Origin: a virus
Lineage: Duplodnaviria; Heunggongvirae; Uroviricota; Caudoviricetes
Length of the DNA: 4,548 bases
Strand: one strand, 5' to 3'
Virus record (IMG/VR): IMGVR_UViG_2703718824_000007
Location: 1 to 4,548 of that record
Shown: positions 3,001 through 4,548 of the stretch, one piece after another
Numbering within the stretch: position 1 is the first letter of the stretch
Layout of the letters: each line of letters starts with the position of its first letter
Program-made: the position numbers

Positions 3001-4548
3001 CTCAATGGCGTTAACCCGGTCGCATTTCCCCTTCGACAGCTTCATGCCAGGAATAACAGGCTTACCATCCACCCGGGTGGCTCCACGGCAGATGGTCCAG
3101 ATACCCGCACCATCACGGTATGCCGTGGTGTGGTTACCTTCTTTTTCATCCAGAAACTGGTCGAGGATTTCAGGCGCCGAAGCCCCTGCGGCAATCAGCG
3201 CCAGAACAGCAGCTGACAGGCCGTATTTGATTTTTGCGTTCATGGATATATTAAATATTCAGCCGCTGTCCCTGGCCCACTAAATACGCACTTTAAGATA
3301 AGTCAGCCCCGGCTGGATCCAGTTATCAGGCTCAGTCTTAAAGGGTGGAGTATTGAAATCACGAAGAACGGTCTCCCGCACAACTGCATCCTTATCAGCA
3401 CCACTGGCCAGCGCTTCAATCTCAGCGGCTACCTGCAGATACCCCATGCAACGACCAATGCGCTGCATCAGCCCCTGTTTTTTATTGTTCTTCAGGTAAT
3501 CAATGGCAAATTCAATGAGCTCCTCACTGTGCTGGTGCGATGGAGGTGTTACTTTCCCATTTTCTGAGATGGTTATTTTCACACCATCACCGGATACAAC
3601 AAAGGATGGCCGGTTACACTCCCATTCCAGCTCACTGAAATTATCATTATGAATACTGAAACACTCTGCGAGATTTCTGCTCATCACTTTCCGACAATAA
3701 TCGTCAAACGCAGCAAACTGCTCATCGCGGCGTTTTTTTTCATCTTCAGAAGGCATCAGCGTCGACAGTTTTTTATTCAGTTCAGCAATTTCATTTTCCA
3801 GGCGACTGAAGCGCTGATTCATTTCTTCATGGTTCATTATTCACTCTCCCCGGGCGGCCTTACGCCGGTCCTCTTTGATTTTGAAATACAGGTTCGTCAG
3901 ATATGTCAGCAGACCAAACAGCAGACTCCCCAGCACGCCTATTGCCGCCCACTGAGACGGGGAAACCCTGTCCAGCAACTGCAGGAACCAGTAGCCCGTT
4001 CCCACCGCTGACGTGGTGTATGACACACCTGTTGTGATTTTTTCCATCTGGTACATACCCCGTCTCCCGCAATCCGGAAGCTCACAACATGAAAAAGGCC
4101 AGCAGCAGTTTACTGATGGCCCTGCCCCCCGTTACAGCATCATGACCGATTCGGGTTGCGGTTCAGTCGCATCGGCGACCGGTGATTCAGGCTGAACTTC
4201 ACCGCTCTCTGCGGTGGTATCTCCCGCTTCAGTCGCTGGCTCTGCCTGTACACCAAGCAGCTCATCCAGAATGGCATCCACTTCTGCATCAAGACGCGCT
4301 TCCAGGTTATGGCGAAGTTTCTGTTTCAGTGCGCTCAGGACTTCTTCAGAGCGCAGGACTTCCTTCACTGCCTCTGCAGTGACCAGGGATGTAATTTCTG
4401 ACATGGGATTTTCTCGTTGAAAGGGGTTATTAAGGAGTAATGGGCTCTTCGGGTTTGCTTCCGGCTGACTGACTGGCGCTGATTTTCTCTGCGGCCCTTT
4501 TATCAATCTGCCTGCGCCAGCAATCGCGCACTGCCCTGTACCCACCCG

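Follow-up and report, generated by a model that had tools for sequence, protein, structure and literature searches.

The RIII protein of phage T4 is a small soluble cytoplasmic antiholin whose target in lysis inhibition is the T holin. In phage Mu, an endolysin of the signal-anchor-release (SAR) type is controlled by a membrane-tethered cytoplasmic 'releasin', and dependence on the releasin is set by lysines in the short cytoplasmic stub of the endolysin (PMC9239132). The holins of Stx2a phages, which belong to the Shiga toxin (Stx) phages, have been classed as pinholins of the P21 holin S family (PMC10462455), and the NanS-p esterase (gp84) of phage phi24B is a processed decoration protein of the capsid, with DUF1737 as its capsid-binding domain (bioRxiv 10.64898/2026.04.10.717836). 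Here we describe a gene that lies among components of this kind, a member of the DUF826 family encoded in a stretch of 4,548 nucleotides (nt) from a virus of the Caudoviricetes (IMG/VR record IMGVR_UViG_2703718824_000007, positions 1 to 4,548; henceforth the window). Our analysis shows a genuine gene conserved in its helical core and in the hydrophobic end of its tail, and we tentatively read it, together with the neighboring DUF1378 gene, as a modulator of lysis.

The closest described relatives are the DUF826 proteins of phages 933W, VT2-Sakai, TL-2011c and phi24B (vb_24B_24), which belong to the same family and are encoded at the same place, between DUF1378 and the holin gene. The DNA flanking the gene in the window is 94-96% identical to that of many Stx phages (933W, VT2-Sakai, TL-2011c and Stx2 converting phage I), and the window as a whole shares 97.5-98.5% identity with non-Stx lambdoid E. 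coli prophages. Compared with other DUF826 lineages, whose proteins span 81-96 amino acids (aa), the window allele is a 90-aa tail variant and otherwise shows no difference of substance. The gene is located as follows:

4132-4404, minus strand: DUF826-family gene, 90 aa plus stop (open reading frame (ORF) translation, Pfam PF05696, PHROG 311 and PHROG 8301)

The ORF runs from an ATG at 4404 to a TAA at 4132-4134, has a GC content at third codon positions of 0.48 and translates as MSEITSLVTAEAVKEVLRSEEVLSALKQKLRHNLEARLDAEVDAILDELLGVQAEPATEAGDTTAESGEVQPESPVADATEPQPESVMML. The original prediction, made from the sequence of the window, had described a strongly acidic protein of about 90 aa encoded upstream of the lysis genes, with some 45 C-terminal residues lacking any basic residue. 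This description is accurate: the protein contains 15 Glu and 5 Asp (20 acidic residues) against 3 Lys and 3 Arg (6 basic residues) and has an isoelectric point (pI) of 4.1, the quoted tail peptide is found in it, and its last Lys or Arg is residue 37, so that the basic-free C-terminal stretch in fact comprises 53 residues. The distance to the downstream holin gene (3841-4056) is 75 nt.

A profile search, as proposed with the original prediction, returns Pfam DUF826 (PF05696), a family of unknown function, at 99.1 bits (gathering cut-off 25 bits; E 1.6e-28), with residues 1-68 aligned to profile positions 1-70 of 75. The protein also matches PHROG 311 and PHROG 8301, both annotated as of unknown function, and is 96-98% identical to RefSeq entries named "DUF826 domain-containing protein". 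It conforms to the core consensus M-x-E-I-K..VT..VK..L.S..V...LK.Q....L....D..VD..L...G, and the invariant and near-invariant columns of the core are common to close and distant members. Among 55 distinct coding sequences, the ratio of nonsynonymous to synonymous polymorphism (pN/pS) is 0.17-0.22 for the core and 0.30-0.49 for the tail. The Pfam match and the low pN/pS together show that the ORF is a real gene on which purifying selection acts. In several lineages, the Mu-like ones included, there is no in-frame start 5' of the ATG and strong Shine-Dalgarno sites of the AAGGAG type lie just before it, which marks the ATG at 4404 as the true and conserved start. A longer frame of 137 aa was rejected as an open-frame artefact that overlaps DUF1378 and has no upstream in-frame starts in several lineages. 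The gene is not the C-terminal piece of a longer characterized protein, given its conserved ATG, nor does it resemble a known structural or regulatory protein, its sole homology being to a family without known function.

DUF826 is a tiny family limited to phages of the Enterobacterales. In a set of 1.84 billion representatives, homologs with E up to 0.001 form 50 clusters; the gene is found in 306 of 50,697 phage records, nearly all from E. coli, Shigella, Stx or E. coli lambdoid phages, and three Pantoea loci were found among 185,579 species representatives. Within E. coli the family is common, being present in about a fifth of complete genomes (1052 of 5426; median two copies, maximum seven), and among the sequenced Stx phages with a NanS-p esterase nearly all have it. 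Literature searches with the names DUF826, DUF1378, L0106 and vb_24B_24 returned no published function, and one paper merely places DUF826 between nanS-p and S. The original observation is correct, but it concerns a family already catalogued without known function and does not amount to a new kind of system.

Several other identities were considered and set aside. The GenBank label 'head completion protein' (PV340551.1, PQ600364.1) has no counterpart in any family or fold match to head proteins or in the phi24B virion table. The labeled coding sequence in PV340551.1 is the DUF826 gene in an over-extended frame, and in PQ600364.1 the label lies over this region; the name appears to be a misannotation that other records could inherit. 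YdfR of the K-12 Qin prophage, considered as a possible DUF826 member, is unrelated, BLASTP giving no alignment with E up to 100. YdfR resembles DUF826 as a small prophage protein encoded within a lysis cassette, but its gene lies between the holin and lysozyme genes; it has been reported to bind the N-terminal (catalytic) half of RNase E (PMC13232886), a result inapplicable to DUF826 because the two proteins are not homologous. Natural 'fusions' of DUF1378 with DUF826 or of a holin with DUF826 (P0008, P0091 and P0101) appear from their sequences to be chimeras produced by frameshifts or by assembly and were left out of the evidence. As to an RNA element or DNA repeat as the explanation of the locus, the DUF826 gene has no Rfam match and no tandem DNA repeats.

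Structure prediction, likewise proposed at the outset, divides the protein into two confidently predicted N-terminal helices and a disordered tail rich in Pro, Glu, Thr and Ala. The following segments can be distinguished:

4252-4404, minus strand: conserved core, residues 1-51, with helices 10-17 and 20-49 and a seam formed by V22, L26, L30, L34, L38, V42, L46 and L50 (AlphaFold2, conserved columns, pN/pS)
4147-4251, minus strand: disordered Pro/Glu/Thr/Ala-rich linker, residues 52-86 (predicted local distance difference test score (pLDDT) below 50, pN/pS 0.30-0.49)
4135-4146, minus strand: hydrophobic C-terminal tip VMML-COOH, residues 87-90 (similar tip in every long-tailed lineage)

In the AlphaFold2 model, built from a 25-sequence alignment, the helices have a pLDDT of about 89-96, and residues 61-84 of the tail fall below 50. 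The long helix carries a hydrophobic residue at every fourth position, and its hydrophobic moment is maximal at about 3.9 residues per turn and not at the classical 3.6; the predicted helical N-terminal half is therefore present, but the term 'amphipathic' describes it only roughly. This Leu/Val seam suggests that the long helix packs against other helices. The protein has no hydrophobic stretch of transmembrane length, and the model comprises two soluble helices and the tail; a holin or membrane antiholin identity was rejected for lack of a transmembrane segment. Fold searches with the full-length model, disordered tail included, against the PDB and predicted viral structures gave no match, although a match to a short hairpin could be missed in this way.

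The core of about 51 aa is common to all DUF826 members and is the sole part left in the distant members of 59-61 aa, from Salmonella, Pantoea and a Klebsiella-like prophage, from which the tail is absent. The tails of E. coli-type proteins span 28-45 residues, with insertions or deletions of 6-9 residues, and their net charge is -9, -7, -6 or -1 depending on the lineage. What the long tails share is their richness in proline and a hydrophobic end, which reads VMML, GTML, DMMM, STMM, SAMM, ATTL, ATML, ATLL or ATILP. These comparisons indicate that the conserved elements of DUF826 are a helical core and a short C-terminal motif carried on a flexible linker, and that acidity itself is not conserved.

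We classified 126 DUF826 loci by similarity to reference neighbors to determine the context of the gene. The elements that surround it in the window are:

4430-4546, minus strand: 3' part of the DUF1378 gene, C-terminal 38 aa plus stop, running off the window (Pfam PF07125)
4092-4123, minus strand: terminator-like hairpin (12-pair stem with one mismatch) and U run, 9 nt past the DUF826 stop and before the holin gene (RNA fold)
3841-4056, minus strand: S21-type class II holin (pinholin) with dual start MYQM (Pfam Phage_holin_2_1, E 7e-33)

Wherever an E. coli-type locus extends far enough upstream, it shows the order esterase, DUF1378, DUF826. In about 83 lambdoid loci DUF826 is followed by an S21-type holin, lysozyme and Rz, the holin gene lying 75 nt downstream in all of them, and in about 36 loci the block sits in a Mu-like prophage, flanked by the invertase on one side and com/mom on the other, in a region that GenBank annotates as an inserted Mu-like phage. 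In relatives of the window Q is followed by tRNAs, stx or other cargo, the NanS-p esterase, DUF1378, DUF826 and holin S. The window shows the same arrangement, with DUF1378 directly upstream of DUF826 and the hairpin and U run directly downstream; the esterase gene lies past its end, and the nearest genomes contain it. An antiterminator had been expected as the upstream neighbor, whereas the neighbor in the window is DUF1378. The proposal that the gene occupies the slot in which Stx-type phages carry toxin cargo is right insofar as it lies at the distal end of the Q-S region, but DUF826 is a conserved resident in Stx phages as well and not an alternative to toxin cargo.

DUF1378 is tightly paired with DUF826 in E. 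coli. Almost without exception, E. coli-type loci have it directly 5' of DUF826, and this holds for every esterase-positive locus; the gap between the two genes is 19-40 nt, and the two families have similar counts among phage records (309 for DUF1378, 306 for DUF826). The full-length gene, annotated in relatives, encodes a single-pass membrane protein of 59 aa with a strongly conserved transmembrane helix, and the part within the window matches PF07125 with E 1.2e-19. Pairwise identities of DUF826 correlate with those of DUF1378 (Spearman 0.74), and neither protein follows the mosaic esterase (0.13-0.39). The cytoplasmic stretch of DUF1378 has a net charge of +2 to +4, and the DUF826 core one of -3 to -5.

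The esterase also occurs on its own: about 41 of 347 phage records have it without DUF826. One of these is YYZ-2008, whose esterase and S21-type holin genes are separated by non-coding DNA alone, so the DUF1378/DUF826 pair is dispensable for both the esterase and lysis. In this phage about 450 bp without a credible ORF (locus L129, 3973-4421) separate the NanS-p esterase, a divergent one (53% identity), from the holin, which has the single start MEKITTG and not a dual start. Mu-like esterases (locus L092, 1669-3750; also L099 and L115) carry another N-terminal domain of about 100 aa instead of DUF1737; in the catalytic part they reach 79% identity with lambdoid alleles, although the adjoining small genes are only 42-51% identical. 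The different N-terminal domain suggests a swapped virion-attachment module.

A hairpin with a U run follows the DUF826 stop by 9-10 nt in nearly all lineages. Across ten lambdoid hairpin variants, 96.7% of the cells are paired; sliding the partners lowers this to 22-71%. Two pairs are changed on both sides. Mu-like loci have a hairpin of unrelated sequence at the same place, which is called as a terminator by a scanner; the copy in the window, with its mismatched stem, is not called. A terminator-like site is also found 5' of nanS-p in TL-2011c, and a scan for sigma-70 promoters upstream of the block or of DUF826 yielded none that was convincing, with counts at or below the shuffled expectation. 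Since the block is flanked by hairpins and has no convincing promoter, it appears to be delimited by terminators and probably needs antiterminated or late transcription. Of the two marks of a moron (an autonomous prophage transcription unit), a promoter and a terminator of its own, the analysis thus supports the second and gave no convincing candidate for the first. The hairpin at 4092-4123 may shield the lysis genes from transcription that is not antiterminated. Between the DUF826 stop and the stem lies a G run of variable length (6-10), seen for instance in locus L020.

Outside the E. coli-type loci, DUF826 and DUF1378 are found apart from each other. Salmonella prophages encode a tail-less DUF826 directly after Rz/Rz1 of an S21-type cassette, and Fels-1 has a decayed DUF826 remnant at the same place. 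In Stenotrophomonas phage BUCT709 (OM816835.1) a genuine DUF1378 gene (Pfam E 6e-17) overlaps the Rz stop by 4 nt as the last gene of a cassette that comprises an S21-like pinholin, a SAR-type lysozyme and Rz/Rz1, with neither esterase nor DUF826; the S21-type pinholin and the embedded Rz1-type lipoprotein of this phage (locus L136, 2721-2936 and 3697-3891) are unannotated in the GenBank record. In Pantoea and in a Klebsiella-like prophage, a tail-less DUF826 lies between the lysis genes and terminase beside a three-gene cargo. This recurring cargo (locus L087, 1844-3901; L139, 5469-7508; also L137 and L138) encodes an MptE-like protein, labeled 'alpha-2,3-sialyltransferase' in PHROGs, a 287-aa unknown protein and an S-adenosylmethionine-dependent methyltransferase; it is a second glycan-type neighbor of DUF826 besides the E. 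coli sialate esterase, which may be a coincidence.

DUF826 and DUF1378 each recur at the edges of S21-type cassettes in unrelated hosts, the transmembrane helix of DUF1378 is conserved, the cytoplasmic charges of the two proteins are opposite and their pairing in E. coli is tight. For these reasons we tentatively favor, as a possibility still short of probable, that the pair modulates, without being required for it, the lysis that a pinholin and a SAR endolysin bring about, with DUF826 as the soluble cytoplasmic partner of DUF1378. DUF826 is a small soluble protein of the cytoplasm that temperate enterobacterial phages express from their late operon, and it would act through protein binding and not on DNA-binding proteins. 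The seam of its core could pair with itself or, on the cytoplasmic side of the membrane, with the conserved basic amphipathic helix of DUF1378, whose predicted single-pass topology is N-out, C-in and which is co-inherited with DUF826; the flexible tail might present the hydrophobic tip to a second partner or a protease. Such a pair would be like a membrane-tethered regulator combined with a cytoplasmic antiholin-like factor and would tune the timing of SAR endolysin release, and the hairpin 3' of DUF826 would stop transcripts that are not antiterminated from entering the holin gene.

Described systems offer analogies for the individual parts. Mu, the type phage of the second, Mu-like backbone, sets with its releasin a precedent for small membrane-anchored regulators of lysis by SAR endolysins. 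This releasin, gp25 (DUF2730), which combines a transmembrane helix at its N-terminus with a cytoplasmic part, is an analogy for DUF1378, not for DUF826; the endolysin encoded in the window starts MNAKIKYG, with stub lysines comparable to those in the releasin-dependent Mu system. The comparison is one of analogy only, as DUF1378 has no match to Pfam DUF2730 and its cytoplasmic helix is short. T4 RIII, as a small helical cytoplasmic protein that tunes lysis at a membrane lysis protein, may serve as a working analogy for DUF826; DUF826 differs from it in having a disordered tail and a different membrane partner. In E. coli SSB and T7 gp2.5, a disordered acidic tail with a hydrophobic end is a docking motif for partner proteins. 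The likeness of DUF826 to these is confined to tail architecture, since it has neither an oligonucleotide/oligosaccharide-binding (OB) fold nor a DNA-binding domain. A more specific version, in our view unlikely, is that DUF1378 and DUF826 constitute an undescribed two-part lysis regulator, with DUF1378 as a miniature membrane-tethered factor and a short-lived DUF826 whose acidic tail and hydrophobic tip would engage the basic cytoplasmic stubs of lysis proteins.

Several points weigh against a role in lysis. The literature searches found no experiment bearing on the DUF826 family, and in Mu-like prophages no lysis gene was found by similarity within the 4-5 kb flanks of the pair. S21-type cassettes function without the pair in YYZ-2008 and in the K-12 Qin prophage. 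Adjacency to lysis genes is weak evidence, because 'before S' and 'after Rz' are also where lambdoid phages usually carry their cargo. Distant DUF826 members have no DUF1378 nearby and BUCT709 has DUF1378 without DUF826, so that each of the two can work alone.

The main rival to lysis modulation is that DUF826, with or without DUF1378, serves as an accessory of the NanS-p esterase, the sialate O-acetylesterase that decorates the capsid, and assists its handling in the cytoplasm by helping it fold, keeping it inactive, setting the time of its proteolytic maturation or mounting it on the virion. The invariant order of esterase, DUF1378 and DUF826 in two unrelated backbones, lambdoid and Mu-like, is consistent with this idea, as are the terminator-like hairpins that bound the block and the presence of tail-less DUF826 beside the glycan-type cargo (the MptE-like 'sialyltransferase' and methyltransferase). 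That NanS-p (gp84) is a processed decoration protein of the phi24B capsid (bioRxiv 10.64898/2026.04.10.717836) also speaks for it, and the Mu-like esterase keeps the pair despite the other N-terminal domain that replaces DUF1737. However, the divergence of the pair does not follow that of the esterase, the esterase occurs without DUF826 in the roughly 41 of 347 records described above, and homologs of both DUF826 and DUF1378 are found without any nearby esterase. The conserved transmembrane helix of DUF1378 is also hard to square with a soluble capsid protein. Furthermore, the phi24B virion proteome table, in which the esterase is abundant, lists neither small protein and no ORF from phi24B 25386-25878, a weak negative for DUF826, as the protein yields few tryptic peptides. 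On balance we judge an esterase accessory to be somewhat unlikely.

Still harder to sustain is the idea that DUF826 is independent cargo directed at the host, for example a decoy or inhibitor of FtsH or ClpXP acting through its tail, with a merely historical linkage to its neighbors. Long unstructured tails with a non-polar end are the type of signal used in tail-specific degradation in E. coli, and the tail of DUF826 fits this type, its tip being conserved while the linker varies; the gene is, moreover, always found in late-region cargo slots. Yet the tail-less members are without the proposed signal, no autonomous promoter was found, and the tight, long-lived linkage to DUF1378 with correlated divergence points to more than chance, leaving independent cargo decidedly unlikely.

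T7 Ocr and ArdA present their acidic residues on a scaffold that is folded and rigid, and they are active at an early stage of infection. DUF826 is like them in its small size and strong net negative charge and unlike them in that its charge lies partly on a disordered, unconserved tail, its gene is late, and sequence and fold show no similarity. The speculation in the original prediction that the protein is a DNA mimic or an inhibitor of host DNA-binding proteins, with an anti-restriction or anti-defense role exerted through its acidic surface, is accordingly the least supported and highly improbable: a small protein of pI 4.1 would fit it, and disordered acidic tails can imitate nucleic acid in some proteins, but no anti-restriction or other named family was matched in Pfam, PHROGs, NCBIfam or the PDB, fold searches with the full-length model were empty, 9 of the 20 acidic residues lie in the disordered tail, whose charge (-9 to -1) and length are unconserved and which distant members lack altogether, the gene lies in the late operon beside the lysis genes and not in an early region, whereas anti-restriction genes act at entry, and the protein was undetected in phi24B virions and so is not obviously co-injected.

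The remaining genes of the window lie downstream of the holin gene:

3280-3837, minus strand: 185-aa protein of unknown function (PHROG 1085 only, no Pfam family)
2710-3243, minus strand: phage lysozyme with a hydrophobic N-terminus
1866-2435, minus strand: Ant-type antirepressor
1717-1869, minus strand: 50-aa hydrophobic ORF
829-1596, minus strand: D12-class adenine methyltransferase
317-820 and 406-591, minus strand: Rz with embedded Rz1
96-320, minus strand: 74-aa ORF

The lysozyme starts MNAKIKYGLSAAVLALIAAGASAP, with two lysines in a short N-terminal stub followed by a weakly hydrophobic helix, and in this respect is SAR-endolysin-like. The slot of the 185-aa ORF, between the holin and lysozyme genes, holds the YdfR/DUF1327 gene in other phages, and a relative of the C-terminal part of this ORF lies upstream of the holin in a Salmonella prophage (locus L134, 2891-3541). 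The lysis cassette of the window is split: the antirepressor, the 50-aa ORF and the methyltransferase (829-2435) separate the lysozyme from Rz/Rz1. In the closest genome, IBS28, the D12-class methyltransferase is annotated as frameshifted.

DUF826 lies between the toxin or esterase genes and the lysis genes and is very common in Shiga toxin phages, which gives the locus a modest interest. If DUF1378 and DUF826 did form a two-part regulator, it would in Stx phages set the time of lysis and hence the release of Shiga toxin and of esterase-decorated phage. More generally, if either DUF826 or DUF1378 tunes lysis timing or esterase loading, toxin release and the spread of phages in pathogenic E. 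coli would be affected.

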